DNA of 64,000 nucleotides from a virus. The stretch covers positions 13,885-77,884 of IMG/VR virus record IMGVR_UViG_3300049491_000465, one strand, 5' to 3'. Both the position numbers and the translations under genes were made by a program. The notes beneath the pieces were generated by a model. It saw only the letters and a program-made list of their open reading frames with translations, was not told where the DNA came from and did not search any database. Shown one piece after another: positions 1 to 55,742 of the stretch (its first letter is position 1; each line of letters opens with the position of its first letter).

Positions 1-771
1 ACTGAGCAAAGTATCCGGAATTCGGCATTGGTAACTGAGATTATCTTCTATGATCATGAACAGACCAAACGAAGAGTTTGTAACAGACTAATCAATCTTT
101 GCCGAAGAGCATGGAAAGATGGAAAACATGGATCCTATGTTTTAGGAGATTTCGCACAAGAACTCTTTAACATACCAGCTAATGCATTGGAAAGAGCTGA
201 CTACCTTGTATTCGCAAGTGATAGCGGTCAGGAGGAAAGAGCTTTAAATGATCTTAAACAATTGTCAATGGCACAATACCAAAAAGGTATGTTGTCATTC
301 TCAAATATTGTTAAACTGTACAACACAGATAATCTTCGGGAAATGGAGGCTAAAGTTGAGCAGTATGAAGAGATAGCTTTAAAGAGAGCTGAAGCAGTAG
401 GTGAAACACAGAGACAGCATGATATTCAATTAAAGCAAATGGACCAGGAGTTTAAAGCTATGATTGATAAGCAAGCTGATGATGCTAAAATGATCATGGC
501 TGAACTTGAAAAAGCTAAGTTCGAATGGGAAATGCAGAAATTTGGAATGGATCAACAACTTAAAAAATACGAAGTTGATGCTAAAAATAATATTGACAAT
601 AAAAACATCGATACAGAGAGAGATGTTGAGTTGGCATATCTTGAACAGCAGAAAAAAGAAGCTAATCAAGAAGTTCAAATAGCAAGAGCAGATTTAGCAA
701 TGAGAGGCGTTGAGGCTACTGAGTCTCAACTCGATCAATCTCGAAAACAAAAAGAGAGTATAAAAGATTGA
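1..771 (+). CDS. Portal protein, C-terminal part (5' truncated by window edge)
   Basis: Frame 1 is open from base 1 (TEQSIRNSALVTEIIFYDHE...), followed by a long coiled-coil tail; lies directly before the scaffold and MCP genes as in crAss-like phages. Confidence 0.75.
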   Translation, partial: TEQSIRNSALVTEIIFYDHEQTKRRVCNRLINLCRRAWKDGKHGSYVLGDFAQELFNIPANALERADYLVFASDSGQEERALNDLKQLSMAQYQKGMLSFSNIVKLYNTDNLREMEAKVEQYEEIALKRAEAVGETQRQHDIQLKQMDQEFKAMIDKQADDAKMIMAELEKAKFEWEMQKFGMDQQLKKYEVDAKNNIDNKNIDTERDVELAYLEQQKKEANQEVQIARADLAMRGVEATESQLDQSRKQKESIKD

Positions 772-799
772 AAATTATACACTTAATTCTCTATATTTG
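768..799 (+). promoter_or_regulatory. Putative Bacteroidota primary-sigma promoter
   Basis: TTG at 768-770 and TATATTTG at 792-799 (fits -33 TTTG / -7 TAnnTTTG) upstream of the 844 ORF. Confidence 0.5.
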
Positions 800-843
800 C
801 TTGAAAGATTTAAGAATAAAAGAAACAAGAAAAACCAAATGTT

Positions 844-1995
844 ATGAGTGATAATATGAACAACGGTCAAGGCCAAAATACAGATCCATCATTAGAGGTT
901 AACTTTGATGCTTTATCTGCTCCGGAAGGACAGTATAATCCATTTATTCATGGCGATGGTAATGGAAACGTAAATAATTCTGGTTCTAACGAACCGGGTG
1001 AACCGAGCATTCCAGGAAGTACTGAAGATCTTATTAATGGACTTCCTAACTTAGATAAGGAATTCAATCAACAGCAATTAGATCAACAGAATCAACAGCA
1101 AAGCCAAGATCAGCAACAGAATCAGAATCAAGATCCTAATGCTGGGCAAAACAATAATCAACAGCAAACTTCCGGTGATTACTGGATGAAGCCGTTTGAG
1201 CAAATAAAAGCAGCTAATCCTGAATGGGAAATCCCCCAAGGATTGAACGAAGAGAACTACCTTCAAACTCTTCAGGAAATATTTACGCCAGAACTTCATC
1301 CTGAAGTCGTGAAAATACAAGAGGCAATTGATAAAGGAGTTACTTTTGATCAAGTTGTTGAGGCGTATAAAGGAGGTAACGATATGTCGAAAATGACAGA
1401 TCGTGAAATGATGGATCAGCATTTCAAAAATTCTTACAAGGATTGGGACGATGCTAAAATCAAAGAAGTTCTTGATAAGATGGAGAATTCCGGTTATCTT
1501 GAAATTGAAGCCGGTAGGCTTAGAAAAGAGATCAACGAGCAACAGTCAAGTGCTCTTGACAATATGACGAAAACTTTTGAGCAACAACGCTCTCAAGAAG
1601 TCGCAAGGATCAATGATGAGCGTTCAAAGCAAATCAATGAATCACTCAATATAATCAACAAAGCAAATGATGTTTATGGTCTACCACTAAGTCAATCTGA
1701 AAAGGTAGAGTTCAGTGAATATTTCGCTAAGTTGGTTACTCCAGACGAAACTGGTATGGCCCCTATGTTCCGGGAATTGCAAAGCAATGAAACATTGGTG
1801 AAAGTAGCAGCTATGTTATGGAAAGGTGATTCAAAAATCCGTGCAGCTTTAACGAGTGCTAAAGAATCTGGTAAAGCATCAGTTCTTGATAAGCTTGATA
1901 AAACTCCGAATAATGTTCAGAGAGGTGGCGGTAATCAAGATCCAACCCAAGTAGATTTCGATGCATTGTCAGCTCCAGAGCGATTGATGCATTGA
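844..1995 (+). CDS. Putative capsid scaffolding protein (acidic, Q/N-rich N-terminal half, coiled coil)
   Basis: Between portal and MCP; low-complexity acidic N-terminus, helical C-terminus; FDALSAPE motif at both termini. Confidence 0.6.
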   Translation: MSDNMNNGQGQNTDPSLEVNFDALSAPEGQYNPFIHGDGNGNVNNSGSNEPGEPSIPGSTEDLINGLPNLDKEFNQQQLDQQNQQQSQDQQQNQNQDPNAGQNNNQQQTSGDYWMKPFEQIKAANPEWEIPQGLNEENYLQTLQEIFTPELHPEVVKIQEAIDKGVTFDQVVEAYKGGNDMSKMTDREMMDQHFKNSYKDWDDAKIKEVLDKMENSGYLEIEAGRLRKEINEQQSSALDNMTKTFEQQRSQEVARINDERSKQINESLNIINKANDVYGLPLSQSEKVEFSEYFAKLVTPDETGMAPMFRELQSNETLVKVAAMLWKGDSKIRAALTSAKESGKASVLDKLDKTPNNVQRGGGNQDPTQVDFDALSAPERLMH

Positions 1996-2033
1996 TGAAT
2001 TAAATTATTGTTGAATTTAAAAAAAGGTACGAG

Positions 2034-3488
2034 ATGAAAATTATCGGTACTGGCACATACGATGCCAACAGGACCACAATGACAAACTCCCTTGCGGCAG
2101 CTCTTTTGACTCGCCCGGAGATTTCGTCAAACGTGGTGAATTTATTTGAGGACAATTTTACAGCGTTCTCATCTTACCTCGCACGAAGAGGTTTTATGAA
2201 AAAAGGTCTGACTCCCGGATTAGAAACATCTGATTTCAAAGTGATTGGAAACCGAAAGTTCATGTGGGCTTTGAAAGGTTATCCTTTCCGAAAAGGAAGA
2301 ATCGTTGTTGATGCTACCGATGCAAATGGTGGTGCAACAGCACAACCGGGTGTTAATCAATCAGTGTTCATCATTACTTTGGATACTAATTTCTTTTCAC
2401 CAAATGATACTTTGGAATTGGGAGATCGTAGAACGATCGTTCAAGTCATGGATGAGTATCCGGTGGAAGTGGGTTCAGGAAACTGGAAATACAAAGTGAA
2501 GTTAGTTACCAATGTTCAAGGTGCATGGGTTGATCCTACTCTTGTCTCTGCTGACAGAGAAGTTGGTTTCAGTTACACTGCGTTCCCGGAACTTTCTGAA
2601 ACTGGTTACGAGAAAAACACATTCCCTGAGTGGCATACAAACTACATGACTATCCAACGTATGCAATTCTCAATTTCTGGTTCTGCACAGAACACAGTAT
2701 TGTGGGTTGAGCACAATGGTCAAAAATTGTGGTTTAAGCAACAAGAGATGGACATGCTTCGTCGTTGGGCTTATGCTCGTGAGAATCAATTGATTTTCGG
2801 TAAAGCATCTATTGATGCAAACGAAAATGTATTGCTTCGTGACTTGAAAGGTCGTGAGATCATCCAGGGAGATGGTATCGTTGCACAAGGAGATTCTTCA
2901 TTGAAATTCCAGTACAACAACTTGAATGTAAAAACTCTTGAGAACATCATGCAGAACTTACAATTGTTGTCTAACAACGATGGTATGACTGAGGTGTTTG
3001 TAATGGGTGGTCAAGCATTCGTTTGGAACTTCCAACGATTGATGCGTGATGTATTCAAGTACAATCCTACTCCATTATTTGTTTCTGAAGGAGACAAAGA
3101 AAAAGGAGTTAAAGTGGCTTTCAACAGCTACGAGATGGGTGGTGTTAAGTTGGTTGTTGCTTGGAATAAAGCAATGGACGCAGCTTGGAGACCGCAAGAG
3201 AAAGATATCTATGGTGTAAACCTTGAGTCTTATCGTGGATTCTTCGTGAGTCTTGGTAACACTATCGGAGGTGATGCAAACGTAGATCTTGTTGCTCTTG
3301 GTAACGGATCTGATGATCGTCGATATGTGAAAAAGATTATCGACGGTATGTCCACTCCACAAGGATCTGGTCGTCGTGAATTCGCTTCAAATTCAGTTGA
3401 TGGATACCAAGTACAGATCTTGTCTGAGACAGGTCTTTGCTTGAAAAATCCATTCGGATTTGCTGAGATCTACAAACCAAGAGGATAA
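2034..3488 (+). CDS. Major capsid protein (crAss-like)
   Basis: 484 aa, synteny after portal and scaffold, strongly biased codon usage, crAss-MCP-like segments (FMWALKG, ELSETG, NSVDGYQVQILSETGLCLKNP). Confidence 0.85.
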   Translation: MKIIGTGTYDANRTTMTNSLAAALLTRPEISSNVVNLFEDNFTAFSSYLARRGFMKKGLTPGLETSDFKVIGNRKFMWALKGYPFRKGRIVVDATDANGGATAQPGVNQSVFIITLDTNFFSPNDTLELGDRRTIVQVMDEYPVEVGSGNWKYKVKLVTNVQGAWVDPTLVSADREVGFSYTAFPELSETGYEKNTFPEWHTNYMTIQRMQFSISGSAQNTVLWVEHNGQKLWFKQQEMDMLRRWAYARENQLIFGKASIDANENVLLRDLKGREIIQGDGIVAQGDSSLKFQYNNLNVKTLENIMQNLQLLSNNDGMTEVFVMGGQAFVWNFQRLMRDVFKYNPTPLFVSEGDKEKGVKVAFNSYEMGGVKLVVAWNKAMDAAWRPQEKDIYGVNLESYRGFFVSLGNTIGGDANVDLVALGNGSDDRRYVKKIIDGMSTPQGSGRREFASNSVDGYQVQILSETGLCLKNPFGFAEIYKPRG

Positions 3489-3535
3489 TCTCAAAAGAAA
3501 AAAGAATTAAGGACCCAGATAAAAGACTTTAAGAA

Positions 3536-4393
3536 ATGGAAGCTTTAACATCAAATATTAAAAGACTGGTGGCAACTGATAAAAAGTATCATGAGGCCCC
3601 AGTCTTCATTGCTCCGAAGGAGGATTCGAAGACAAGAAAACCAATTGATTACGCTGCTCGATTGAGTGATGCTCAAAGAGAGAAGCTGACAATTACTCTT
3701 GCTCCGAAAGAAGATCGTGATGGAAACATCGTTGACGAAATGGTTATCAGAATTGGTCATCTTCATGTCTTTGACTTGAGTATGCCAAATGATGCCTTAC
3801 TTTTCGAAGTAGTCAAAGATGACGAAATGATCGCCGCTTCTAAGGCTCATGTGAACCCCACGGTTCATCGTTTCTACATTGAGGATAAAGAGAAAGAAGC
3901 TGTTGCTACTATCAGTAAGTCCAAATTGAAGAAACAAGCGTTTGCTGTCATCGATGGTTTATCCATTGATCAAATGGCAAATTACGCTAAGATCCTTGGG
4001 AAGTTTGTACAATCACTTTCTGCAACTCAGATTGAATCTGCTTTGTATGAGATTGCTGAAGACAAACCACAATTGATCCTTGATGTGAATAATGATAAGG
4101 ATCTCAAATACAAGATCTTCTTGAAGAAATGTATTGAGAAAAATTATCTTCACATGGACAATGGGAAGTACATGAATGGTAAAGATCTTGTTGGAGTAAA
4201 TGAAGATTACGCTATCCAATGGCTAAAAGATCCACAGAACGCTACTATTGTAAGCCAGTGGGGATCTATGTTTGAAGGTAGAAACGTCAGCAATTACGAC
4301 CCAATTAAAGATCAGAATTTTGATGATGCTCCCAAGAAGGTAGGTGCCAAAGGTGCAACTACCAAAGCGAATGAAAGCAAAACTGACGAGTAA
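3536..4393 (+). CDS. Conserved crAss-like protein downstream of MCP
   Basis: 285-aa ORF in the conserved post-MCP position; function not assignable. Confidence 0.55.
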   Translation: MEALTSNIKRLVATDKKYHEAPVFIAPKEDSKTRKPIDYAARLSDAQREKLTITLAPKEDRDGNIVDEMVIRIGHLHVFDLSMPNDALLFEVVKDDEMIAASKAHVNPTVHRFYIEDKEKEAVATISKSKLKKQAFAVIDGLSIDQMANYAKILGKFVQSLSATQIESALYEIAEDKPQLILDVNNDKDLKYKIFLKKCIEKNYLHMDNGKYMNGKDLVGVNEDYAIQWLKDPQNATIVSQWGSMFEGRNVSNYDPIKDQNFDDAPKKVGAKGATTKANESKTDE

Positions 4394-4406
4394 AAACTGA
4401 TACACC

Positions 4407-5129
4407 ATGTTGATCACTGCTCAAAATATGTTCACGTTGTTTCTTGATCTCCTCAATAAAGAGGAGACAGGAACCGTGACACCTGCTGAATTCAATAGAT
4501 TGATAAACAATTCCCAAGAGGAATTGGTAAAGAATAAATATCATGAAGTTGAGTTGACTCAGAAAAGAGTAGATGATCTAAGAATTTTAGAAGTTAGAGA
4601 TGTTCTTCCTAATGTAGGAGTGAATGTTCCTGGTGGTGAAATTTTTGAATTGCCTTATAGCGAAACAGGAATGGTAACAACCCCAGGAAATCCTAATGGA
4701 GATAATCATGGTTATATGTTTTTATTGAATGTAGCATTCAGGATTCAATATGTAAACAATAAATGTAAGCATACTGGAATCTCAAAACCCTTAAAGACAA
4801 AGCGAATGACTGCTGATAAGGAATATGAGATAGATAGTGATCCATACAACAAACCAACTGATGAACGGTTGTATCACAAAATGATTGGTAATACAATCAG
4901 ATGCATTACAGGAACAGAATCGTTTGGTGTTGAAGCTTATATTGATTACTTGAGATATCCGAGACAAATCAATGTTCCGGTTCCAAATGCAAATCAGGAT
5001 ATTCCATGTGAACTTCCATTGCATTTGAGAGAGGAGATTGTAAGAATTGCTGTCAGAAAGAAACTTGGTATCTACGAATCACCGAGATACCAACAATCAA
5101 TTGCTGAAGATGCTCAGTCAATAACGTAA
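4407..5129 (+). CDS. Putative head-tail ring (connector) protein
   Basis: Motifs EFNRLIN, YIDYLRYP, CELPLHLREEIVRIAV resemble crAss ring proteins; synteny. Confidence 0.6.
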   Translation: MLITAQNMFTLFLDLLNKEETGTVTPAEFNRLINNSQEELVKNKYHEVELTQKRVDDLRILEVRDVLPNVGVNVPGGEIFELPYSETGMVTTPGNPNGDNHGYMFLLNVAFRIQYVNNKCKHTGISKPLKTKRMTADKEYEIDSDPYNKPTDERLYHKMIGNTIRCITGTESFGVEAYIDYLRYPRQINVPVPNANQDIPCELPLHLREEIVRIAVRKKLGIYESPRYQQSIAEDAQSIT

Positions 5130-5153
5130 AAATAATTTTTAAATCTAAAAGAA

Positions 5154-5924
5154 ATGTTAAGAAGACATGCCGATAGGATTTTGATTAACTCAATCAATCC
5201 TGCACTAATCACAAACGTAGTTCCTGGTGTATCGTTGACGATCGAAGGATACGGAACTTTGACTGTTGCTGGTCAAGTAGAGTCTCATAAAGAGTGCACA
5301 ACTCCGGAAATCGCTAAAGTTGTTGGTGTTACAGTTGTAATTCCAGTATCATGCGAATGTCCTTACGAGTGGTGTATGACTGTTGAGTGCTTGCCAAACC
5401 TTAAAAATTATGAGGTTCAAACAACATTCCCTGCTATTCGTACTTATTGTTACGAAGATCCTGCTGGTGGAACTCCGACTGCTGCTGCTACTGCTGCTGC
5501 TATCACTGCTTCCATCAACAACGATCCTTTCTCTTGTGTTACTGCTTCTGTTGTTGGAACTGTAATCACATTGACAGGGAAACCTGGTGTGAATTTCAAT
5601 GCTTACACAGCTTCAGGGGCCGTTGCGGAGGTAACTCCTTACACTCCTGCTTTGATTGATTCAGAGTATATGGCTCGTTTGTTCCCAATTCGTCATGGTT
5701 CTTTTGGTTCTCAACCAAATTTACCTCTTCCTGGAAGCGACTATTGTGAGTATCACTTCACAATTCGTAAGCAATCTGATGTTCAGGATGTTGACGGTGC
5801 GAATCATTGGAATGATTACGAAAAAGAAGTTTACTTCTATGTTCGTCCTGATGATGCGAACTACGCAGCATTCGATACTCCTGTTGCAGGATTAATTCCA
5901 ATTGCTAACGGTGGTACTCTATAA
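5154..5924 (+). CDS. Putative auxiliary capsid/structural protein, Cys-containing, beta-rich
   Basis: Codon usage as biased as the MCP gene; TAAATAAAITASIN...VITLTG segment typical of structural proteins. Confidence 0.45.
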   Translation: MLRRHADRILINSINPALITNVVPGVSLTIEGYGTLTVAGQVESHKECTTPEIAKVVGVTVVIPVSCECPYEWCMTVECLPNLKNYEVQTTFPAIRTYCYEDPAGGTPTAAATAAAITASINNDPFSCVTASVVGTVITLTGKPGVNFNAYTASGAVAEVTPYTPALIDSEYMARLFPIRHGSFGSQPNLPLPGSDYCEYHFTIRKQSDVQDVDGANHWNDYEKEVYFYVRPDDANYAAFDTPVAGLIPIANGGTL

Positions 5925-6271
5925 TGAGTTTCACTGAATTAATAGTGGCAATATCCCTATTCTGTCTTGGTCTTCGTGAGGTAACTGACGAAATAGATCA
6001 AGGCAGGATAGGGTATCCTATTAGACGGTGGTTCATAGATCAAGAATGGATTCCATTATTTATCGCAAAGCCTATCATTCTTTGTGTGGCTTGTATGGCA
6101 AGTTTCTGGGGATCCATTATTTACTGGTCTATTGTTTATTATCAATCCAACAACTTCGATTTTATTTCTGATCCAATGACGTATATCAAGTGGATTTTTT
6201 GCTGTACATCAGCTTCATTTGTAAACACATTATTCTGGACAATAAGAAATAGATTCATCGGGGTTTCTTGA
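5924..6271 (+). CDS. Small membrane protein with CxxC (DUF1360-like)
   Basis: About three hydrophobic segments; KPIILCVACMASFWG motif. Confidence 0.5.
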   Translation: MSFTELIVAISLFCLGLREVTDEIDQGRIGYPIRRWFIDQEWIPLFIAKPIILCVACMASFWGSIIYWSIVYYQSNNFDFISDPMTYIKWIFCCTSASFVNTLFWTIRNRFIGVS

Positions 6272-6281
6272 TTAATTAGTT

Positions 6282-6947
6282 ATGTCAAAGACTCTTGCTG
6301 AAGTAGGATATAGCATCCGAAATCAAATTAAAGGTTACTTCTCAACTGATGATGAGCGAATTGATATTCAACTTATCTATGACAAGTGTTGGGATGTAAG
6401 ATCTATTTTACTGAAAGAAGAGTATCGTCAATTCAAGAAGATAAATGATCAAGATTTTACTACTGAGTGCTGCCTTGAGGTTCAATGTAGCAGTATCGTA
6501 TGCAACGGAATTGATTCCGGAGTAAAAGAATTTTTCGTTCAGATACCAAAAATTGAAGCTTCCATTGGTTACGATGGAATTAAATATTTTGGTACAGTTG
6601 ATAAGAAGACTCCATTCAGAAGAGTTAATTATCAAGGACACATGTTTTCCGGCCATGAGAAATATACCGGTAGAGCACCAATGTTCACTCTGGTTGATGA
6701 TAAAGCAATATTGTCAAACATGCCAACGTCAGGTATGAAGTTCGTCTGCCTCATTGCTATTTTCGAAGATCCAAGAGGTATATGTAATGAAAATGATCCA
6801 TTCCCATTAGCAAGACATTTAGTTCACAAACTTGAATTGATTGTTATTCAACAATTGATGAGCACAATTCAAATAGGACCAGATGAAACTAATAATGGAA
6901 GAGACAATTCTCCGGATCAATTACAGAAACAAAGCCGTGTAGAGTAA
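6282..6947 (+). CDS. Putative tail ring protein
   Basis: crAss ring-like pattern (STDDERID...RSILLK, AIFEDP, DETNNGRD); synteny. Confidence 0.55.
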   Translation: MSKTLAEVGYSIRNQIKGYFSTDDERIDIQLIYDKCWDVRSILLKEEYRQFKKINDQDFTTECCLEVQCSSIVCNGIDSGVKEFFVQIPKIEASIGYDGIKYFGTVDKKTPFRRVNYQGHMFSGHEKYTGRAPMFTLVDDKAILSNMPTSGMKFVCLIAIFEDPRGICNENDPFPLARHLVHKLELIVIQQLMSTIQIGPDETNNGRDNSPDQLQKQSRVE

Positions 6948-7342
6948 TGGAAAATACAAACATAATAAAGCAGGTAAATCACAAAGGACATGTGACATTC
7001 CAGAATCGTGTTTACATGGCTGGTGTTCTTTTTAAGATCAACAGTCAATGGCCTTTTGATATGGTTGTATGGCTTCGTGTTGGTTGTGGTTGTAGCGGTT
7101 CTACATTCCAAGATATAAAACATTATCGTGTATTAGCAAGTGGACATGCAATACTTATAGATGCAAGGTACGTTGTTGAAACTACCGTTCCTATACCTAT
7201 TGAAAGTCAAGACTTTGATGAGGCACGAAGAGAACAGCATTTGAATCCAGGAACAGATTTCACAGACATTGTGGCTCATCCGGATCCAGATGCAATAAGA
7301 GCATTAGCAAATGGTCAAGCTATTGATCGTTTCAAACATTAG
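6947..7342 (+). CDS. Hypothetical protein
   Basis: 131-aa ORF translationally coupled (TAATG) to the previous gene; contains GCGC. Confidence 0.6.
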   Translation: MENTNIIKQVNHKGHVTFQNRVYMAGVLFKINSQWPFDMVVWLRVGCGCSGSTFQDIKHYRVLASGHAILIDARYVVETTVPIPIESQDFDEARREQHLNPGTDFTDIVAHPDPDAIRALANGQAIDRFKH

Positions 7343-7351
7343 ATAAACAGA

Positions 7352-7804
7352 ATGAAGTACAAAAGATGGTACTGTTTAGATCATGCTTATACGCATAAAG
7401 TCAATTACATTGACGATGTGTTTGATTTAAAGAGGTTTAAAAAGCGTTCTTTTACAGATTTCAAAGAGTTACTTAATATGCCAAAGGAAAGAGAGGCAAA
7501 GCAAAAAGCAAAAAATGTTTTAACTTCTTTTCTAAAAACTCTTGCTCAAGATATCATTGTTAAAAATGAAATATTTGTTCTTCCGTGTGTGAATTTTGGT
7601 TACATAAAAATAACCAATACAGCAGATCCGAGAAGAAAAGATTATTTCTACGACATAGAATCTGAAGGTAAGATTTTTACACCTAAATTGACTCTTGATA
7701 ATCGTGTAGTTAAAATGAACAAAAAACATTACAAGTTAAGGTTTAATCAAAACCTCAGAATTCAAATGATGAATTTGATTAAGTCAGGACATAAATACAT
7801 GTGA
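7352..7804 (+). CDS. IHF/HU-like basic DNA-binding protein (crAss structural-module type)
   Basis: Basic; helix followed by FVLPCVNFGYIKI (HU/IHF-like F-G-x-hydrophobic strand); conserved position before the tail ring gene. Confidence 0.55.
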   Translation: MKYKRWYCLDHAYTHKVNYIDDVFDLKRFKKRSFTDFKELLNMPKEREAKQKAKNVLTSFLKTLAQDIIVKNEIFVLPCVNFGYIKITNTADPRRKDYFYDIESEGKIFTPKLTLDNRVVKMNKKHYKLRFNQNLRIQMMNLIKSGHKYM

Positions 7805-7805
7805 T

Positions 7806-8558
7806 ATGAGCGACAATTTCAATAATCCGGCATATACTGTCAACATTAGTGTTGATCCGAGCTTGAGAGCCCTTAATGATAACTCTGTCAATCTCACATG
7901 TAACGATGGTAGTTCAATAAATTTCCAGGCAAGTTCAGTTGAAGAAGTTGGTTCTGGAAAATATTCTTCGGTAAAAAATGTTGCCGCAAGAATAGCAAGA
8001 AATGTTAAAGGAAAAGAGTTTGACATTTACGATATCGCAGAATGGTGTGGTGAATGTGAGACTGATGAAATTGGCATGTATGAAGGTTTTGCTAAGTATC
8101 GCAATGTACCAATACAGGTCAAAAATAATAAAGGGTATGTCCCTTGCAATGTGTACCGGTTATTAAGTGTTCACAGAAATAAATGTTCTGTTGCTAAATA
8201 CGACTGGGATGGTGCATTTCTTCGATTCAACTTTGATGATCCAGGAACGATGAATAGTGAATACACTGTTTACATCGATTACCTTGGTGTGAAAGTTGAC
8301 AGTGAAGGATTGCCAATGATCTTAGATGGACATCAAGAAGCTTGCTTCTGGTACTGCATGACTAAGATCTATTTCGAAGATTATATGAATGGCCTTACTC
8401 CGGAAAATAGATTCATGTTTCTCCAGGATCGTCTTGGTCATTATGTAAGTAAAGCAAAAACTTCATTCAGATATGTCACAAGAGATGATATGAATGAGAT
8501 CCAGAGAATCATGCATAATCTGGTTCCTAAAGTGAAAATGTCAAGAAATGTAGGGTAA
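7806..8558 (+). CDS. Tail tubular/ring protein (P22 gp4-like position)
   Basis: KYSSVKNV..., DIAEW, VYIDYLG...DSEGLPMI...EACFWYC pattern; synteny after the IHF-like gene. Confidence 0.6.
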   Translation: MSDNFNNPAYTVNISVDPSLRALNDNSVNLTCNDGSSINFQASSVEEVGSGKYSSVKNVAARIARNVKGKEFDIYDIAEWCGECETDEIGMYEGFAKYRNVPIQVKNNKGYVPCNVYRLLSVHRNKCSVAKYDWDGAFLRFNFDDPGTMNSEYTVYIDYLGVKVDSEGLPMILDGHQEACFWYCMTKIYFEDYMNGLTPENRFMFLQDRLGHYVSKAKTSFRYVTRDDMNEIQRIMHNLVPKVKMSRNVG

Positions 8559-10684
8559 TGAAACTGAAGACTAAAATAGGGAAATCTGAAATCCATGGTA
8601 AAGGTCTTATGGCTGGAAAGGATTTGAAGCCAGGTGAAAACCTTGGAGTTTCTCATGTTGACAATTGGCCCACAAAAGATATTGGTGAAAACTATAATCA
8701 TTCAGATAATCCAAATGCCATGAGTAAAAATGTAGGTAATAAAAAGATTGTCGTTCCGATAAAGAAGTTAAAGAAAGGCGATGAGATTACTGTTGATTAT
8801 AGAACTAATCCTGAACTGGAACAGCCTGAAGGTTTTAAATCTGGAGGTAGTCTTTATAAGATGATGGATTATCAAAATGGAGGACCCGAAAATTCATCTT
8901 CAACACCAGTCAGACCTGTATCAAACAAACCAAAACCATTAGAGATAGCTGATCCTAAAGAATACAAGTATAGAAAATCTATGTATGATGATAGTTTAAG
9001 TCTTTTTAATGCATATCAATTTCAGAAAAAGAATATTAATCCCACACCAATATTAAGGGAATATGTAGAGGATTACAATACCACTACTAAAAAATATTTT
9101 AATGGAAAAAGACCCACCCTAACAGTAGATCAAATAAAAAAAACACGAGATACTAACTTCAACAAAAACTTACCTAAGTTTAGTCACAATGAATACTTAA
9201 AAACTAAAAAAGATCCATCAGGAGGATTTGATCCAATGGATAAAGCAAGTGGAGATTATAAGATTTATGACCATAATAAAAAGTTAAATTTTAATTATCC
9301 AGTATCGTTAGGAAAACACAGTTCTCCTGATCTTTGGCATTCAAAAATAAACCCATCAGGTTCTTATTTTGATGGTGTTGCTTATTCTCCAAAGTATAAA
9401 AAACCAATTCAACCTGTTCAGTTTGTTGAAAAACAAACGGAAACATCCGAGAACACAATTAAAGAAGGGTTAAATACAGAAGTAAAAACAATATCTCCTG
9501 AAGAACAAGCACCAGTATCAAATACGACACCAGAATCTAAAACAACAACTAAATATCCAATTCAACAAGCTTACAGAGCTCAAACAATAATGGAGCCTGA
9601 TACTGCAATGCCTGGTAAATACAAAGTAAAAGAAATAAGACAAGTGCCTTATCAAGCTACATCAGGAGATAGTGAATCAGACTGGAAAGATGTTCATGCA
9701 CCAATTATGCTGTGGGTTAATGATAAAGGAGAAGAAGTTGAATATGATCCAAGAAAAGGACAAGATTCAGTTAATCATACACAAAACAACGCATCTCAAA
9801 CAGAGGTTCAGAACGAAAAAGCTAAAGCAGAAAGAAGATCTCAATTCTTTGATCCAAGTGATCCCAACAGACCTTCGTTCAATAAGGGCGGAAGTATCTA
9901 TGGTATGATGGAGTATCCCGATGGTGGACCAGGTTCAATGACTCCTCCGGCAATGAGTTTAGGAATGACTGATTCAGCCGCAGGGAAAACCATGTTGAAT
10001 CCATTTTACAGAGAACAGCTTAAAATTTATAACGACTGGCCCACATCGTCAAATTTTGGATCAACCACAGCTAAGGTTTTAGAAGGAAGAGAACTTGATA
10101 ATTGGTATTCAGAAGCGGTAAAAAATCAACCTGATTTAATTAAAGAAGGAGGGTTGTATGCCGGTAATTTTAAGCCATCAAGAGTTTATTTAGATGAAAC
10201 AGGAATTTCAGCTTACCCAATGTTTAATAAACCTTCAAGATATATACCGGCACCAGAACCAACCCCTCCTCCAGCTCCAGTACCAGTTAAAAGACCTGGT
10301 ATGTATTTGAGTGCGAATACCGCACAGCCAATGCCTGATAGAGGATCTCCTGGACAAGTTGATAGACAGTACAGTCAATACTTAGAAGAGTTCGCAAATT
10401 CTCCAGAACAAGTTGCAGCAAGACAATCTACTCAAGCTAACATGAGTAGTAACACAGAGTTGCTTCAAACCATGACTGAAGAACAGAAGGCTGAAGCCAG
10501 AAAAAAGAAAATGACCCCTACTGAATTTCTTTCTACACAAAATAAAAGTGATTCTGTACAGTCGTCAGGATCGATTGCCAATCCAGTTTCAACAGAAAAT
10601 ACATCTCCGTTCTTTGATCCAAACGATCCTAAAAGACCGTCTTTTAATAAGGGTGGTAGTCTGTATAGAATGATGAAATATTAA
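8558..10684 (+). CDS. SET-domain (lysine methyltransferase-like) modular protein, putative virion cargo
   Basis: N-terminal ~85 aa carry SET motifs: SEIHGKGLMAGKDLKPGE, YNHSDNPN, KKGDEITVDY; remainder split by three GGS(L/I)YxMMxY repeats. Confidence 0.75.
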   Translation: MKLKTKIGKSEIHGKGLMAGKDLKPGENLGVSHVDNWPTKDIGENYNHSDNPNAMSKNVGNKKIVVPIKKLKKGDEITVDYRTNPELEQPEGFKSGGSLYKMMDYQNGGPENSSSTPVRPVSNKPKPLEIADPKEYKYRKSMYDDSLSLFNAYQFQKKNINPTPILREYVEDYNTTTKKYFNGKRPTLTVDQIKKTRDTNFNKNLPKFSHNEYLKTKKDPSGGFDPMDKASGDYKIYDHNKKLNFNYPVSLGKHSSPDLWHSKINPSGSYFDGVAYSPKYKKPIQPVQFVEKQTETSENTIKEGLNTEVKTISPEEQAPVSNTTPESKTTTKYPIQQAYRAQTIMEPDTAMPGKYKVKEIRQVPYQATSGDSESDWKDVHAPIMLWVNDKGEEVEYDPRKGQDSVNHTQNNASQTEVQNEKAKAERRSQFFDPSDPNRPSFNKGGSIYGMMEYPDGGPGSMTPPAMSLGMTDSAAGKTMLNPFYREQLKIYNDWPTSSNFGSTTAKVLEGRELDNWYSEAVKNQPDLIKEGGLYAGNFKPSRVYLDETGISAYPMFNKPSRYIPAPEPTPPPAPVPVKRPGMYLSANTAQPMPDRGSPGQVDRQYSQYLEEFANSPEQVAARQSTQANMSSNTELLQTMTEEQKAEARKKKMTPTEFLSTQNKSDSVQSSGSIANPVSTENTSPFFDPNDPKRPSFNKGGSLYRMMKY
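9845..10684 (+). repeat. Internal direct repeat FFDPxDPxRPSFNKGGSxYxMMxY (9845-9916 and 10610-10681; partial copy 8831-8887)
   Basis: Visible in both protein and DNA (ttctttgatcca...gacc.tc.tt.aataaggg.gg.agt). Confidence 0.9.
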
Positions 10685-10696
10685 AATTTACACACG

Positions 10697-13600
10697 ATGC
10701 CAGTACAAAATAATGAATTTTTCAAAGGAGACAACAGGGATCTTGATGTTCTGAGAATGCCGAATGATACAGCTCGGAGACTTCAGAACATGCGTATTAT
10801 TGATGTCGATGGAAAAGGTCTTGTTTGTACTAATATTGGTGGTAATGAATTCAGATTCTCTTTGACTCATGGATTCATTCCAATTGGAAGATGTGAATAC
10901 AATGGTATAGGATATATCGCTTCAGTTAATCCTGATACAGGGGAAGGTGAAATAGGATGTTATCCTGCACCAACAGCATTAGCGGATCAGAATCCTTCTG
11001 CCGTAGGATTTGGTGCAAAGGTATATGCTCCGTTATTCAATTTTACCGGTGGAAATATTTCGAGAGATCCAAATTCAATTGCTCAAGCATTTAGAACTCC
11101 ATTGTTCAATTTTGATTGTCACAATCAGATCGACATGTTTGCCAGAGAAGATTATGATGGATCTGTAAATCTTTATCTTGCGGAAAAAGGAAATCCATTA
11201 AGGGTTATTAACTCTGGATTTGATAAATCAGGTGCTCTTACATCGATCGGAAGAAGATATTGGAATGGATCGTTCCCAAATGCAATCAGCTTGATTAATG
11301 AGTCTGAAAATCATATTGACGTTCAATTCACTGGTCTTGGAAAAGCAGGATCATTAAGAGGTGGTAACTGGATATTCTTTGTTCGTTATGCTACTGAGAA
11401 TTTTGACAAGACATCTTTCTTTACAGAAACGAATGCAATAATGATTACATCCGGTGAATATGCAAACGAAGGCATAAGACATCATGGTGTTAAGGGTGGT
11501 GAAGTAACAGACAAAAGTGTTAATCTTTCGTTTTCCGATATCGATCCAACATACTCTTATCTTGAGATAGGATACATGTATTCATTCAATGAATCACAAG
11601 AGTTTGGAATCATTGATAAATTGTATGCACTCGATCCAAATTCCTCAACAATAAACATTGAGATAACCGGATACGAAGGTAGATTTGAAACAGGATTCGA
11701 AGAGGTTATCAGATCGAAAGTAAGATTTGACGGAGCCACAACTCATACCCAATTAGAGAACAGATACTTTGCTGCTGATCTTTTTGACAATACTGATTTT
11801 GATGATGATGCATCTCAAGATATTCTTGATTTTGCTCAGAAAATAAAACCAAAGTATGATGATTCAAAACTTATAGCACACATTTCTGGATCCGGATCTC
11901 CAATTGGTATCTACAACAATGTTGATAACACATACAATTTCACTGGTCATTTTAGAGGAGAGTCGTATGCTTACGGTATAGTTTGTGTTTTGAACAATGG
12001 AAGAGAAACTCAAGCTTATCCAATAGAAGGTGTTGATGATTACAATGGAGTTGGGGGTACTACAAATCAAAATGGTATTTATAGATTTCCGAATATAAAC
12101 CTATCTCAAACTGTTGCCGGTAACAATATTCGTGTTATGGGTATCAAGTTCGATATATCGTCTGCAATCGCTTCAATCCCTCAATACATCCTTGATAACG
12201 TATCAGGGTTTTACTTTGTGAGATCTAAAAGAAATGAAACATTACTGTACCAAGGACTTACACTTCCTTGTTACAATGCTGCTGAAGGGAAGGACATTAG
12301 AGGATTATGGTTTGCTTTTCCAGATTTCCCACAGATTCTTAAAAGAAACGAGAATCTGGTTCCTATGTTTGAGTTGAATGGAGATGATGAGAATGGTGCT
12401 GAGTTTCCGTACATACACAGATTTGATCCAGACGATCTTCTTGACAGGGAGTTTACCTTTGTGTTCTGGCATAACAATCTGAATAAAAGAATTGCCAATA
12501 AATTTGGATTCTATTCTCCAGATCACTTCTTTAACAAAAGTGTTGGTGTTAATAAAGCTTTTGTTTCAACATTCGCTGATGTTACATTCAATATCTCTCA
12601 AGAAGATAAGTTGAGTAAGCCGGATTATTTTTACGGTGATAATACATACACCTATATTCTTGGACCAAAATCCATGTATGACATTGCTAATATCAAAGAG
12701 TGGGAACCGGCTAATAATAATGGATATGCTTCCTATTTCAATGAAGGTGCAAAAAGTGATTTCAATGGTAACTTCTATTTCTTTGCGAAAAACTTACTTG
12801 GAACAAAGTATATTGAGGTAAGAAATCATGAGATGGCTTGGAATTCATACATTGGAATCAATTCATCTAATGCTTTAAGATATAGATTGTCAAACATTTA
12901 CAGAACAAATGTTGATCCTTCTATTTTTGATATAAATGATCTTTATGACATCAAGGCAACTGAGTATTACAAGATTAGTAAGTTCTACAAAATATCAGAT
13001 GTCGTAGCTGATCCATCGATTGTAAACGGTAACATCTTTTATCGTGGAGATTGTTTCCTTCAGAGAACTTGGTTGAAGCAGTTATTCAATCCTAAGTACG
13101 GTGTAGGTGTGAAAGATGATGGAGGAGGCGTGTTCGGATGGACAGCAGCACTTCCGGGACCAATAAAGGAACGGTTATTCACATTTGGTACATCATTCAG
13201 TATTATCACTGAAAACAAGATTAATACCGAGATGCGTTTGGATAATGCAATTAATAAATATTACCCCGGATCTGTTGCTCTCATATACGATCATGCTGCA
13301 AAAAACATTGAGAAGGAATCTCAGGATTTGAATCGTGGATACAATGAATTGTTGTCTGTAAAATCTTATCGTGGAATTGATAGAGAGATACCGTTTATTC
13401 CAGAAAAGAAACACGCTGCAATCATGGTGAGTAACAAGCATGTTCTCGGATCTTTCCTTGATGGATACCGTGTTATTGATCAGAATGCGATTCGTGATTA
13501 CGATTACAGAATGGGTAAAATTGTTCGTATAGGAGTATTGAATAACATACTTTTGAGCGTTCAAGAATTTGGTGTGAATAGACATTTTGTAAATGAAAAA

Positions 13601-14611
13601 GCTGTACTTAATGGGGGTCAATCCTCTGGTGAATTACTTCTGGGAACTGGTGACGTTCTTGATCCTAAACATTTGAATCTTTCTGATTTTGTCGGATCAC
13701 AACATGCTTGGTCGGTAGTATTTACTGATCGTGCTATGTATGGTGTGGATTACAATAAGAGAAAAGTCTGGAGAGCACTCCAGCAAGAAGGTGGACTTTC
13801 TGTTGAACCAACAAGTGATATATATGGATACCGAACAACTATACATCAGCTTTGTGAGAAGAATACTGGGGACTCTGATATTACTGAACTTCTTGATGAT
13901 AACCCTGTATGTAATGCAGGTATTGTGGCACATTATGACAGAAAACATAATGACATTATCTTCTCTTGGATATATGGAAATCCAACCACTCCAAATGATT
14001 GTGACATTAATAAAAACGGTTCTACAATTGTTTTCAATGAATGGATGAATGCATTCCATGGAGAGAGAACTGTTGCTTCACCAATGTCTCTTTCTGTGAA
14101 TGAGGATTTCTTTTATTTCAATCCAAACATATTCCCAAGTATGAATCCAATTCCTGTTCCAAATGGAGACGCTTGGATTCAGGATATTAAGATTTCAGGT
14201 GGAATTGAAAATGCTACATTGTTCTTTGGGATTGCAGATCCTCATATCTCTTTTGTTGAATTCATTGTTAAAGAACCTGCTGATATTGCAAAAGTGTTTG
14301 ATAATCTTCACATCAACTCTTCTCCGGAAGATTTGTATAAAGCTTTCTATGAAACTCAACATCAAACAGGAGAACATTTTCCATGGATCGTTGGAGATGA
14401 AATAAACTACTGGAGAGATCCTATATACCAAGAAAATCTCTGGAGACTTCCGATTATTAGAACTCAGCAAATACAGGAACCTGAAAACAATATCTATGAT
14501 GTAGATAGCAGATTCAGAGGGCGTTGGTTGAAAATAAGATTGGAATATAAGACAGGAAGCAATATCTTTATAAAATCAGTTTTGACTGCATTTAGAGAGT
14601 CTAAACACTAA
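10697..14611 (+). CDS. Tail stabilisation / muzzle protein (P22 gp10-like)
   Basis: 1304 aa; NEFFKGDNRDLD N-terminus, FRGESYAYGIV, RGDCFL, GSQHAWSV, RFRGRWLKIRL C-terminus as in crAss muzzle proteins. Confidence 0.8.
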   Translation: MPVQNNEFFKGDNRDLDVLRMPNDTARRLQNMRIIDVDGKGLVCTNIGGNEFRFSLTHGFIPIGRCEYNGIGYIASVNPDTGEGEIGCYPAPTALADQNPSAVGFGAKVYAPLFNFTGGNISRDPNSIAQAFRTPLFNFDCHNQIDMFAREDYDGSVNLYLAEKGNPLRVINSGFDKSGALTSIGRRYWNGSFPNAISLINESENHIDVQFTGLGKAGSLRGGNWIFFVRYATENFDKTSFFTETNAIMITSGEYANEGIRHHGVKGGEVTDKSVNLSFSDIDPTYSYLEIGYMYSFNESQEFGIIDKLYALDPNSSTINIEITGYEGRFETGFEEVIRSKVRFDGATTHTQLENRYFAADLFDNTDFDDDASQDILDFAQKIKPKYDDSKLIAHISGSGSPIGIYNNVDNTYNFTGHFRGESYAYGIVCVLNNGRETQAYPIEGVDDYNGVGGTTNQNGIYRFPNINLSQTVAGNNIRVMGIKFDISSAIASIPQYILDNVSGFYFVRSKRNETLLYQGLTLPCYNAAEGKDIRGLWFAFPDFPQILKRNENLVPMFELNGDDENGAEFPYIHRFDPDDLLDREFTFVFWHNNLNKRIANKFGFYSPDHFFNKSVGVNKAFVSTFADVTFNISQEDKLSKPDYFYGDNTYTYILGPKSMYDIANIKEWEPANNNGYASYFNEGAKSDFNGNFYFFAKNLLGTKYIEVRNHEMAWNSYIGINSSNALRYRLSNIYRTNVDPSIFDINDLYDIKATEYYKISKFYKISDVVADPSIVNGNIFYRGDCFLQRTWLKQLFNPKYGVGVKDDGGGVFGWTAALPGPIKERLFTFGTSFSIITENKINTEMRLDNAINKYYPGSVALIYDHAAKNIEKESQDLNRGYNELLSVKSYRGIDREIPFIPEKKHAAIMVSNKHVLGSFLDGYRVIDQNAIRDYDYRMGKIVRIGVLNNILLSVQEFGVNRHFVNEKAVLNGGQSSGELLLGTGDVLDPKHLNLSDFVGSQHAWSVVFTDRAMYGVDYNKRKVWRALQQEGGLSVEPTSDIYGYRTTIHQLCEKNTGDSDITELLDDNPVCNAGIVAHYDRKHNDIIFSWIYGNPTTPNDCDINKNGSTIVFNEWMNAFHGERTVASPMSLSVNEDFFYFNPNIFPSMNPIPVPNGDAWIQDIKISGGIENATLFFGIADPHISFVEFIVKEPADIAKVFDNLHINSSPEDLYKAFYETQHQTGEHFPWIVGDEINYWRDPIYQENLWRLPIIRTQQIQEPENNIYDVDSRFRGRWLKIRLEYKTGSNIFIKSVLTAFRESKH

Positions 14612-14623
14612 AAAACGTAAGTT

Positions 14624-15625
14624 ATGCCATGGCCAGCAATTGCCGCAATAGCGGGTAAAGTATTAGGAGGATTAGCTGCATCTGGAGCAGGTGCAGGAGC
14701 GGCCGGTGCTGCCGGAGCAGGAGGAGCTGGTGCAAGTGGTATTGGTGGAATGCTTGGCGGAGGCGGAGGCGGTATGATGGGCGGAAAAGGTATCATGGGA
14801 ATGATGGGTGGCCAAGGTGGAGGCGGAGGTCAAGCCGGTGGAATGATGCAAAATATAGCTGGTAAAATAGGATCGACTGGTGCTGCTGTACAAGGTGGAC
14901 TTGTTAATATGCTTGAAGCACAAGATGGTTTATTGATTGATCCTAAATTGTTTGATTATTTATCAAAGATGCAAGGAACCGAAGGACAAGCTCCAGCAAT
15001 GGGAAATCCTCCAGTAGCAGACAATACTGCTATGGCATCTGGATTAGAAGCTCAAACACCTCAAGTTCAAGGACAAGATGTTCCTGATGCAGCAGGTTCA
15101 GCACCTCCAGTAAATCCAATGACTCAAGTTCCAGATCCAAATCAACAAGTGGCGGATCCGGCAAGGCAACCTGCTCAACAGCAAACTATCACACCTGGAA
15201 ATCCAAGTGATTTAAAAACTAATTTACCTGGTGCAAATCAGGGCCCTCCAGGAAAAGGAGCAGCCGGACAGATTAGCTCTTTAATGGGAATGATGGGTAA
15301 AGGAAATTATACAACCGATCAAAGAGGTGTTACACAAGTTTCTGAAACAAGTGATGTTTTAGGTAATTCTGTTAAGAAATTCGACCCTAAAAAGCCTGGC
15401 TCAGCCATTACTGCTACTGCTGCTTTTGTTACCGGGATAGCTAAACAGCAATCAGAACAGAGAAGAGCTCGTCGTGAAGAAGCACAATTAGCTTCTGATT
15501 TCTCAAGAGCACAACAAGCCTCAAGTGTTTATGCAGATCCAAACAGTGTTTACTATTCTGCAAAAGATGGTGCACCTGTTAGTTTATCAAAGATGATGGT
15601 TGGAGGTAGAACTAAAAACTGTTAA
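14624..15625 (+). CDS. Putative ejected cargo/pilot protein (Gly/Ala/Met-rich N-terminus)
   Basis: Hydrophobic Gly-rich N-terminus, Pro/Gln-rich middle; first gene after the muzzle. Confidence 0.55.
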   Translation: MPWPAIAAIAGKVLGGLAASGAGAGAAGAAGAGGAGASGIGGMLGGGGGGMMGGKGIMGMMGGQGGGGGQAGGMMQNIAGKIGSTGAAVQGGLVNMLEAQDGLLIDPKLFDYLSKMQGTEGQAPAMGNPPVADNTAMASGLEAQTPQVQGQDVPDAAGSAPPVNPMTQVPDPNQQVADPARQPAQQQTITPGNPSDLKTNLPGANQGPPGKGAAGQISSLMGMMGKGNYTTDQRGVTQVSETSDVLGNSVKKFDPKKPGSAITATAAFVTGIAKQQSEQRRARREEAQLASDFSRAQQASSVYADPNSVYYSAKDGAPVSLSKMMVGGRTKNC

Positions 15626-15628
15626 GAG

Positions 15629-17104
15629 ATGAGTATCTTGAAAATGTCATACGGAACAATACCTGGTAATGGTCATCATAAGTCTGATGATAAGGTTATG
15701 AATGCAGGTCCCGGACATGTTGTTCCAGGGGAAAATCTTCATGTGGCTAAAAGACTTGTTTCTGATATGGGATATGATCCTGATGCAAGTGTTGATCTTA
15801 ATCAAGGTAGAGGGAATGGTCAGAACATAAAGATCAGTTCCGGTGAATTCTTCATGAATGAACAACAAGTTGAGGAGTTGAGAAATAAAGGGGTTAATCC
15901 TGAATCTCTGTCTCCGAACTCAAAGTATAATCAAAGCGGAAACAATATGAACGGTGGTCCAAACGCTTATGCTTCAGGGGGTATGACTCTCTATGAGCTA
16001 ATGATGAATAACAATAATCAGTATCCATCATATCAAGATGCTGGGTCTACCGATCCATTAAAAGATCCTTGGGAACAAAGGCCGGCTAATGAAATTCTAA
16101 TGCCTCCAGGAGCTACTGCTGATCAAGGTTCAGAACTTCCATCTGCACCAAGAGATATGAAAGAAAACTTTCCTATCAGTACAGAGATGCAGGTTCTTGA
16201 TCCTAACTCATGGAGTCCAAACATTCCAGATTATGATCCTTTAAGAGAACCATGGGAACAATTACCTGCTGGAGAAATATTATCACCTGGAAATCCAGAT
16301 CAAGGATCTGATTTACCAATAACTCCAGGTAATTTAAGAGAACCATACAATCTTGGACCAAAACCTTTTGAAGCAGAAAAACCTGCTGGAAAAAGTCCTG
16401 AAGATATTTACTTACAAGATTTGCTTCATAAGAACAAGAAGTCAGCAGACAAGGAGGTTCTTGCAAATATGGCTATGTTTGGCTGGAATGCTTCAAGAGG
16501 TAGAATGCCTGGTGAACAGCCAAAAATGGTTCATATGAGAGAGGCTGTTCGTGATTACCAAGGTATGAAGAATCTTGCTGCTGGAGATCTTGAGAGAGCT
16601 GAAAGACGAAACGCTTACACATTGAAACAACTTGGTGCTCCAGAAAAGATTGTTGGTCTTCATGCGAATACCATCCAAGGTGCAAACAAGATCAATGAGT
16701 CTATCTGGGATATGCAAGGACAGGATTCTATGCAGAATGCCGGTGTAGCAAATCAGGTTCGTATGGATTACGAGAATGCTATGCGTCAATACCGAGCTAA
16801 TGAATCTGCTGCAACACAGAATTTCAGAGATATGAAAGGTAAAAACATGGCTGAAAATGTTGCTCAAACATTCGATGTTCGTGATAATGAACTCTCAAAT
16901 GAAACTACTCTTCGTGGATACAAGAAGAATCAAGAGATGGATGAGCTGGATCGTCAGTACAACACATTGAGCAAAAATGCATTTCAAGGTAAATATTTTA
17001 GTAGACAAGATTGGTACAAAATGACTCCTGATCAGAGATCTAAATATATAAAGACATCTGATGAGCATACAGCAAAAATGAAAGGCTCAACTAATCAGGG
17101 CTAA
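15629..17104 (+). CDS. Putative ejected cargo protein
   Basis: N-terminal PGNGxxKSDD...ISSGEFFM domain, internal ~40-aa duplication, helical C-terminal half; between muzzle and RNAP. Confidence 0.55.
   Translation: MSILKMSYGTIPGNGHHKSDDKVMNAGPGHVVPGENLHVAKRLVSDMGYDPDASVDLNQGRGNGQNIKISSGEFFMNEQQVEELRNKGVNPESLSPNSKYNQSGNNMNGGPNAYASGGMTLYELMMNNNNQYPSYQDAGSTDPLKDPWEQRPANEILMPPGATADQGSELPSAPRDMKENFPISTEMQVLDPNSWSPNIPDYDPLREPWEQLPAGEILSPGNPDQGSDLPITPGNLREPYNLGPKPFEAEKPAGKSPEDIYLQDLLHKNKKSADKEVLANMAMFGWNASRGRMPGEQPKMVHMREAVRDYQGMKNLAAGDLERAERRNAYTLKQLGAPEKIVGLHANTIQGANKINESIWDMQGQDSMQNAGVANQVRMDYENAMRQYRANESAATQNFRDMKGKNMAENVAQTFDVRDNELSNETTLRGYKKNQEMDELDRQYNTLSKNAFQGKYFSRQDWYKMTPDQRSKYIKTSDEHTAKMKGSTNQG
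16052..16348 (+). repeat. Internal duplication DPL(K/R)(D/E)PWEQxPAxEIL...DQGS(E/D)LP
   Basis: Copies begin at 16052 and 16235. Confidence 0.85.
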
Positions 17105-40633: not shown

Positions 40634-40636
40634 GCT

Positions 40637-41092: not shown

Positions 41093-41094
41093 TC

Positions 41095-42081: not shown

Positions 42082-42093
42082 AAATTGAATAAG

Positions 42094-55478: not shown

Positions 55479-55742
55479 TTACTCTTCGTTTTTATTTGTC
55501 CCTTCAGGACGGTTATTACTCTTTCCTTCACTTGTTTTTAATTTTCTCAGATAATTGGAATAAGATTTTTTATTGAAATAAATGCTTCCAAAATGCTGGA
55601 GCTGTATATCTTCTCCTTTACGGATCATTTGACATACATTCTTCATTGCATACATGATAATTTCCCTCGCTTGTTTCTTGGTTATACCATGTTCTTTAGC
55701 AATAGCTTTTGTATAATCATCTACTCTCTTCTTATTATACAT
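55479..55742 (-). CDS. HU/IHF-like DNA-binding protein
   Basis: IAKEHGITKKQAREII...GEDIQLQHFGSI. Confidence 0.75.
   Translation of the reverse strand: MYNKKRVDDYTKAIAKEHGITKKQAREIIMYAMKNVCQMIRKGEDIQLQHFGSIYFNKKSYSNYLRKLKTSEGKSNNRPEGTNKNEE

Follow-up and report, generated by a model that had tools for sequence, protein, structure and literature searches.

Genomic context of the SET gene

The DNA analysed here comprises 64,000 nucleotides (nt) of a viral record from IMG/VR (IMGVR_UViG_3300049491_000465, positions 13,885-77,884). This whole stretch is referred to as the window, and positions follow its numbering unless another contig is named. Among its tail genes, the window carries a gene for a mosaic protein of 708 amino acids (aa) that begins with a compact SET domain. 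The SET gene sits between the genes of the tail ring protein R1, upstream, and the muzzle protein, downstream:

7806..8558, + strand: tail ring protein R1 (Pfam CrAss_Ring_1, 3.6e-23)
8558..10684, + strand: whole SET gene, encoding the 708-aa mosaic protein (P0001), as defined by the open reading frame (ORF) list and translation, internal repeats and homologue mapping
10697..14611, + strand: muzzle protein (Pfam crAss_MUZ, 7.6e-42)

The R1 stop codon and the SET start codon overlap by 1 nt (TAATG), and the overlap is also kept in the syntenic relatives (3/3). Together with the crAss_MUZ match downstream, this agrees with the initial annotation of the locus, which had described the gene as coupled to the ring gene and placed ahead of the muzzle gene. 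The genome is that of an uncultured environmental crAss-like phage. Its Crassvirales hallmarks include Crass_capsid (1.8e-39), CrAss_Ring_2 (1.7e-13), CrAss_Ring_1, crAss_MUZ and a giant 6414-aa ORF downstream, counted as the virion RNA polymerase-type ORF.

The N-terminal SET domain

Residues 1-93 are confirmed as a genuine SET domain, as judged by profile, predicted fold and catalytic motifs. This region consists of a core and a conserved tail:

8558..8809, + strand: mini-SET core, aa 1-84, with G14, G16, N47-H48 and Y81 (Pfam, PDB profile, AlphaFold2 [AF2] model, Foldseek, VIA and invariant columns)
8810..8836, + strand: PELEQPEGF tail, aa 85-93, family consensus PELEQPEDF (family alignment and vSET alignment)

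The Pfam SET profile (PF00856, cut-off 22.4 bits) was matched with 25.1 bits by the whole protein and with 29.9 bits by aa 1-100, and it retrieved 41 of 46 family members, the best at 2.8e-17. A profile built from 18 homologues and searched against the PDB aligned with the SET domain of MLL1 (6e-11) and with vSET of a chlorovirus (3.3e-9). The AF2 model of aa 1-100, made from a 42-sequence alignment, had a mean predicted local distance difference test (pLDDT) score of 83.2 and a predicted template modelling score of 0.71, and was confident over aa 1-80. With this model, Foldseek returned vSET (3kma) as the top match and 121 matches at E<=1e-3, all matches listed being SET enzymes. VIA-align superposed 76-90 residues of the model on EZH2, MLL1, MLL3, vSET, SET7/9 and SMYD3 (Z 11-12.5; root-mean-square deviation [rmsd] 1.5-2.8 A). 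The initial annotation had assigned positions 8558-8830 to a SET-domain lysine methyltransferase. Its SET identity is upheld by a Pfam score above the gathering threshold and by a predicted fold that resembles SET methyltransferases only, and its motifs lie where it had placed them (IHGKGL, aa 12-17; YNHSDNPN, aa 46-53; EITVDY, aa 76-81). The span is to be revised, as it covers only the first module of the 708-aa protein.

The residues of these motifs (G14-x-G16, N47-H48-S49..P52-N53 and E76-I-T-V-D-Y81) align with the equivalent motifs of MLL1 and vSET. In the SET family, the GxG and NH residues bind S-adenosylmethionine (SAM), and the tyrosine of 'DY' is the catalytic one; the positions that carry the chemistry are thus the best conserved ones. 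In the alignment of 42 homologues, G16, G30, G43, N47, H48, P52, E76, Y81, Q89 and P90 do not vary, and conservation reaches at least 90% at S10, I12, G14, H33, S49, T78, P85, L87, E88 and F93. Compared with the closest relative (L001), the SET codons show 0.11 nonsynonymous differences per site (pN) against 0.65 synonymous ones (pS), a level of purifying selection comparable to that of the ring and muzzle genes. The residue two positions before Y81, which we take to be the Phe/Tyr-switch position of MLL1 and SET8, is not aromatic (V79), and this would allow multiple methylation.

The closest known counterpart, vSET (A612L of chlorovirus PBCV-1; PDB 1N3J, 3KMA), is a 119-aa histone H3K27 methyltransferase. 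Both are viral minimal SET domains without pre-SET or post-SET Zn clusters. They share 27% identity (Foldseek 5e-6; VIA Z 11.6, rmsd 1.8 A over 79 residues), the motifs NHSxxPN and EEITxxY match, and the pairing continues into the C-terminal tail. However, vSET is free-standing, belongs to a eukaryotic virus and has host histones as its substrates, whereas the SET domain of the window is one module of a large protein from a phage tail and cargo block. The latter also carries the PELEQPEDF tail and is shorter: query residue 42 aligns with vSET residue 64, so that the part ahead of the NHS motif lacks about 22 residues relative to the 119-aa vSET chain.

The domain is also shortened relative to MLL1. 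Query residues 7-28 match residues 21-42 of the MLL1 chain and query residues 45-83 match 93-135, and AF2 model residues 1-82 cover MLL1 3825-3945 in the VIA superposition. The 16 query residues in between (29-44) replace about 50 residues of MLL1. The SET-I insert, by which SET enzymes usually line one side of the substrate groove, is therefore essentially missing.

The PELEQPE(D/G)F tail is conserved like the catalytic motifs and is followed by xKGG. Among 151 retrieved signature-bearing proteins, the residues after PELEQP are E in 125, D in 95 and F in 143. The tail has its counterpart in the C-terminal segment of vSET. Here the AF2 model loses certainty, its pLDDT being 66 and dropping to 44. 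As a T4 prohead-protease site, the tail fits poorly with the consensus (L/I-x-E), and this candidate was dropped.

Modular architecture of the 708-aa protein

Self-comparison of the protein revealed three copies of one motif, GGS[LI]YxMMxY, here called the tag. Since the copies stand at the borders, the protein reads in the order SET, tag, module 2, tag, module 3, tag:

8831..8887, + strand: tag copy 1, FKSGGSLYKMMDYQNGGP, aa 92-110 (self-comparison)
8888..9841, + strand: module 2, aa 111-428, common to P0003-5, 7, 11, 12, 15, 16 and 23
9842..9931, + strand: tag copy 2, FFDPSDPNRPSFNKGGSIYGMMEYPDGGP, aa 429-458 (self-comparison)
9932..10606, + strand: module 3, aa 459-683, Pro-rich (homologue mapping)
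10607..10681, + strand: tag copy 3, FFDPNDPKRPSFNKGGSLYRMMKY, aa 684-708, at the exact C-terminus (self-comparison)

Tag copies 2 and 3 are identical at 22 of 25 residues but at only 78% of nucleotides, which indicates that the motif is kept at the protein level. The stop of the SET gene with the codon after it (TAA AAT, window 10682-10687) corresponds to CAA AAT (Gln-Asn) behind tag copy 1 (8873-8878). Modules could therefore be fused or split when a stop codon is lost or gained at the border of a tag, although the alignment concerns two codons only and may be due to chance.

Module 2 was found in nine other metagenomic proteins (homologues of this kind are labelled P0002-P0023), while module 3 had no relatives in any sequence set searched. 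Neither Pfam nor PHROGs matched module 2, an ESM Atlas feature search returned nothing for it, and its Atlas structure matches had TM-scores of at most 0.25. Its AF2 model (pLDDT 48.5) is mostly of low confidence or disordered apart from a conserved helix and a beta-hairpin, and the ESM Atlas model of the whole protein has a pLDDT of 0.45. Outside the SET domain, the protein is thus predicted to be mostly disordered, with few conserved elements. Base composition shifts along the gene: the GC content is 0.29-0.33 in module 2 versus 0.39-0.41 in module 3, and the sign of the GC skew flips between them.

Relatives and distribution

An exhaustive search by HMMER with aa 1-100 retrieved 678 cluster representatives (50% identity) at E <= 1e-3, 248 of them at E <= 1e-10. 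In the 151 signature-bearing proteins, which have a median length of 888 aa and reach 2382 aa, the SET domain stands at the N-terminus of 126, at the C-terminus of 17 and inside the remaining eight. An alignment-based scan detected the domain in at least 107 IMG/VR loci; a single-sequence scan of IMG/VR, unlike the alignment-based one, gave no match. Cellular occurrences were limited to two contigs of metagenome-assembled genomes among 185,579 bacterial and archaeal genomes. The distribution of the SET domain is therefore near-exclusively viral. Against deposited phages, megablast with the region found no match, and neither did tblastn with the whole protein against 50,697 phage records. The SET ORFs that the deposited phages do contain are all small and distant; they belong to cyanophages, a pelagiphage and others, with no crassvirus among these records, and a PHROGs search with the protein retrieved SET-related families only.

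Gene contexts of relatives were read from the IMG/VR loci (labelled L001 and so on). The order R1-SET-muzzle is found in four related genomes, the window and L001-L003. Neighbouring genes of the three relatives match those of the window with E-values from 1e-40 to 0, and R1, R2, the major capsid protein and the muzzle protein at 1e-119 or better. The gene in the gap between R1 and the muzzle gene encodes 621, 109 or 1012 aa in these relatives, the 109-aa version, that of L002, being the SET domain and a degenerate tag alone. The SET domain is thus constant while the remainder is exchanged. In L001 (8995-10860, P0006), the module that follows the SET domain and tag is Gly/Asn-rich, apparently rich in beta-strands and common to P0002; this P0006/P0002 module had no Pfam match and no C-terminal tag, and might conceivably form a membrane beta-barrel.

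A second crAss-like lineage, represented by 32 further contigs, has the order R2, R1, muzzle, SET protein and two large ORFs. Here the SET protein, of up to 1824 aa, starts on the stop codon of the muzzle gene. In all, the SET gene adjoins the muzzle gene in 35 crAss-like contigs. Other SET-headed proteins carry the domains Phage_lysozyme, Phage_lysozyme2, Amidase_2 and YkuD, and one member carries ART-PolyVal. A separate class of phage proteins of 690-750 aa (L050, L080 and similar) combines an N-terminal DHH-like domain with a C-terminal SET domain that has the PELEQP tail. In L050, this DHH-SET gene lies near a DNA N6/N4 methylase gene and outside any recognizable tail module. Considering its size (678 clusters, at least 107 viral contigs) and its near confinement to viruses, the SET family is a widespread trait of environmental crAss-like phages.

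Tags in neighbouring genes and in the second lineage

Sequences resembling the tag recur in both genes that follow the muzzle gene, which encode a Gly-rich 333-aa protein (14624..15625) and a 491-aa protein (15629..17104):

15581..15607, + strand: tag-like SLSKMMVGG near the C-terminus of the 333-aa protein, conserved in L001 and L003
15977..16039, + strand: tag-like GGMTLYELMMNNNNQYPSYQD in the 491-aa protein, conserved in L001 and L003

In the 491-aa protein, the stretch LYxLMMNNNNQYPSYQ is kept in L001 and L003 and its flanks are variable. The 333-aa protein (14624-15625, + strand) has a hydrophobic N-terminus followed by about 70 Gly/Ala/Met-rich residues and is suggestive of an ejection protein that inserts into membranes. 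In L003 the homologue reaches 499 aa, the first tag being followed there by an extra module that ends in a second tag. The motif was absent from the 6414-aa ORF and from the remaining proteins of the window.

The second lineage has a tag of its own, GG..ELT..EI..Y..GY.IEE. In a scan of 1913 complete ORFs, 14 SET proteins and two products of genes immediately downstream ended exactly in this tag, which is also present at internal junctions. Module 2 links the two lineages: in the window it is followed by the window-type tag, and in its homologues by the second-lineage tag. Payloads are therefore shared across lineages, whereas tags are lineage-specific. This is the pattern expected if a tag has to fit a component of its own particle, as a loading or docking signal would. 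The pattern is also compatible with cleavage sites for a lineage-specific protease. Pfam recognized no such processing protease in the upstream 13.9 kb, where the only peptidase is an M15 cell-wall peptidase, or in the 6414-aa ORF. The consensus of adenain-type cleavage, (M/L/I)xGG, fitted the tags poorly, and this idea was dropped.

Proposed function

We propose, with a probability of about 0.5, that the product of the gene is a polyvalent cargo or ejection protein of the virion, built of modules, whose mini-SET head is catalytically competent and methylates a host or co-injected protein. The gene would be translated late, coupled to R1, and its product loaded into the capsid or the tail cargo space by means of the tags, which may serve as docking or loading signals and possibly as processing sites. 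At infection, the protein would be expelled through the tail ahead of or together with the DNA. With SAM from the host, its SET head would then methylate lysines, either on a host protein or on a phage protein injected along with it. The part behind the SET domain would be an exchangeable, largely disordered payload, each module ending in a lineage-specific tag. A more specific version, in which the tags are lineage-specific cargo-loading peptides, any payload set before a tag becomes a packaged, injected effector, and the mini-SET is a near-universal first payload in environmental crassviruses that methylates a host protein at entry, is put forward tentatively.

The build of the protein is of the polyvalent type: three unrelated modules, encoded beside virion genes and shuffled among relatives. 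Polyvalent proteins were described as large multi-module proteins that have virion genes as neighbours, are predicted to be packaged and injected, and carry shuffled enzymatic modules (Iyer, Burroughs, Anand, de Souza, Aravind 2017, PMC5512222). The lysozyme, amidase and YkuD domains of the SET family, and the ART-PolyVal domain that defines polyvalent proteins and occurs in one member, match that repertoire. The likeness is incomplete: only one enzyme domain is recognizable in the protein of the window, no peptidase module was found, and a tag grammar is not described for polyvalent proteins. Likewise, SET domains and lysine or protein methylation are not mentioned in that paper (PMC5512222).

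In phage PhicrAss001, the genes of R1 (gp43) and the muzzle protein MUZ (gp44) are followed by those of the virion-proven cargo proteins C1 (gp45) and C2 (gp46) (Bayfield et al. 2023, PMC10172136). By this order, the SET protein of the second lineage occupies the C1 slot, and that of the window lineage lies one gene earlier. Like C1 and C2, it is muzzle-adjacent, belongs to the same block of ring, muzzle, cargo and RNA polymerase genes, and is largely unstructured with short ordered segments; in PhicrAss001, the ordered cargo segments dock on the portal, R1/R2 and the muzzle (PMC10172136). Unlike them, the window gene precedes the muzzle gene. Moreover, C1 and C2 are proven to be packaged and have no reported enzyme domain, whereas packaging of the window protein is predicted. 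Residues 88-165 (tag 1 and the module-2 helix) were chosen, by analogy with the C1 helix that lies on R1/R2 in PhicrAss001, for a complex prediction with R1 and R2; its score of 0.00 counts neither way.

The muzzle-adjacent slot, the C1 position, the hydrolase and ART-PolyVal domains and the tags in the two genes after the muzzle gene lend circumstantial support to packaging, and by these analogies the protein is probably carried in the particle and injected. There is precedent for such delivery in phage T4, whose Alt protein is a capsid-carried ADP-ribosyltransferase that is injected with the DNA and modifies the host, its targeting signal being N-terminal and cleaved. T4 internal proteins and encapsulin cargo are likewise directed into an HK97-fold shell by a short terminal peptide, which is C-terminal in the encapsulin cargo. 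The tags differ from the N-terminal, cleaved capsid-targeting sequence of T4 in being C-terminal or internal, and their role in loading is putative.

Several observations weigh against this proposal. The SET-I insert is absent, with about 35-40 residues lost, and Ser-His (S32, H33) stands where the canonical EYxG motif has its tyrosine, so that activity could be altered or lost. SET-I is, however, an accessory and not a catalytic element, and its absence marks an unusual variant without placing the domain outside the SET family. The SET domain is the only enzyme domain recognized in the 708-aa protein, and a tblastn search with the whole protein against the 50,697 phage records showed no similarity to gp45/gp46 of PhicrAss001. 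Finally, if the protein acted in the periplasm, as lysin-bearing ejection proteins do, SAM would be unavailable to it.

Three other explanations have to be weighed. It is rather unlikely, though the most probable of the three, that the SET domain is an active methyltransferase of the late infected cell or assembling particle, which would act on the phage's own structural or cargo proteins and not as an anti-host effector, possibly shielding virion proteins from proteolysis or tuning DNA/protein contacts. SAM is present in the producing cell, and the gene is embedded in the late structural module, with its 1-nt overlap with R1. Co-assembled substrates would be at hand in the K-rich xKKGG right behind the SET tail of most family members and in the adjacent cargo-like proteins that share the tag. 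No observation sets this reading apart from that of an injected effector. A maturation enzyme, though, would not need fusion to an exchangeable payload, and the lysin and ART-PolyVal fusions of relatives point to action on the next host.

In a second alternative, an improbable one in our view, the mini-SET has kept the SET fold but not the chemistry and serves structure or peptide binding, perhaps as a compact plug or adaptor with which a cargo protein in the tail barrel begins. The missing SET-I insert and EYxG tyrosine speak for it, as do the sequence before the NHS motif that is about 22 residues shorter than in the 119-aa vSET and the nearly constant terminal position of the domain (N-terminal in 126 and C-terminal in 17 of the 151 proteins). 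Yet conservation is highest at exactly the cofactor and catalytic positions (G14, G16, N47, H48 and Y81), which would be unexpected in a purely structural role. vSET, which we presume likewise lacks the EYxG tyrosine, is active according to the titles of its PDB entries.

Least credible is a non-packaged 'moron' in a recombination-prone gap between tail genes, with the repeats as flexible linkers or recombination joints: the hypervariable post-SET content of otherwise syntenic relatives and the compositional shifts along the gene (GC 0.29-0.33 versus 0.39-0.41, with a change in the sign of GC skew) would suit it, but two divergent crAss-like lineages have the gene in the muzzle-adjacent slot, the tags show conservation at the protein level and stand at exact C-termini, also on other genes of the cargo block, and the fused lysin domains are sensible only for virion-delivered proteins.

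If an injected SET enzyme is what the gene encodes, lysine methylation would, provided the domain is active, be added to the means by which phages take over their hosts. We know of no phage that injects a protein-lysine methyltransferase; the injected modifiers known to us are ADP-ribosyltransferases such as T4 Alt. The literature searched held no report of a SET domain in crassviruses or in polyvalent proteins, the one 'set domain' in the crassvirus paper being an immunoglobulin C2-set; this accords with the initial view that SET is not a standard crAss structural gene. An active mini-SET would also be a SET enzyme more compact than vSET and would show which parts of the fold are dispensable. 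The tag grammar offers a testable idea of how crassviruses select cargo for the capsid and tail zones, a question left open by the PhicrAss001 structure.

Other features of the genome

The initial annotation had counted two HU/IHF-like genes as possible sources of methylation substrates. Pfam recovers one only (PF00216, 32 bits, an 87-aa frame at window ~55563-55709, - strand), with no second one in the 77.9-kb record at E <= 0.001. The contig segment upstream (1-13900, L082) encodes a ferritin-like protein (7268-7834), the M15 peptidase mentioned above, of the D-Ala-D-Ala carboxypeptidase type (9385-9885), and a P22-type portal protein (contig 12133-14655) whose gene extends into window 1-771.

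Downstream of the cargo-like genes, a single ORF encodes the 6414-aa protein (window 19137-38381, + strand). It showed no RNA polymerase or peptidase family at Pfam E <= 0.01, its sole Pfam recognition being an SF1 helicase/AAA_30 domain at aa 1451-1634. The tail-fibre region (window 38759-43143, + strand) encodes a 624-aa protein with BNR/Asp-box-like repeats, a 328-aa phage tail collar protein and a 352-aa collagen-repeat protein.

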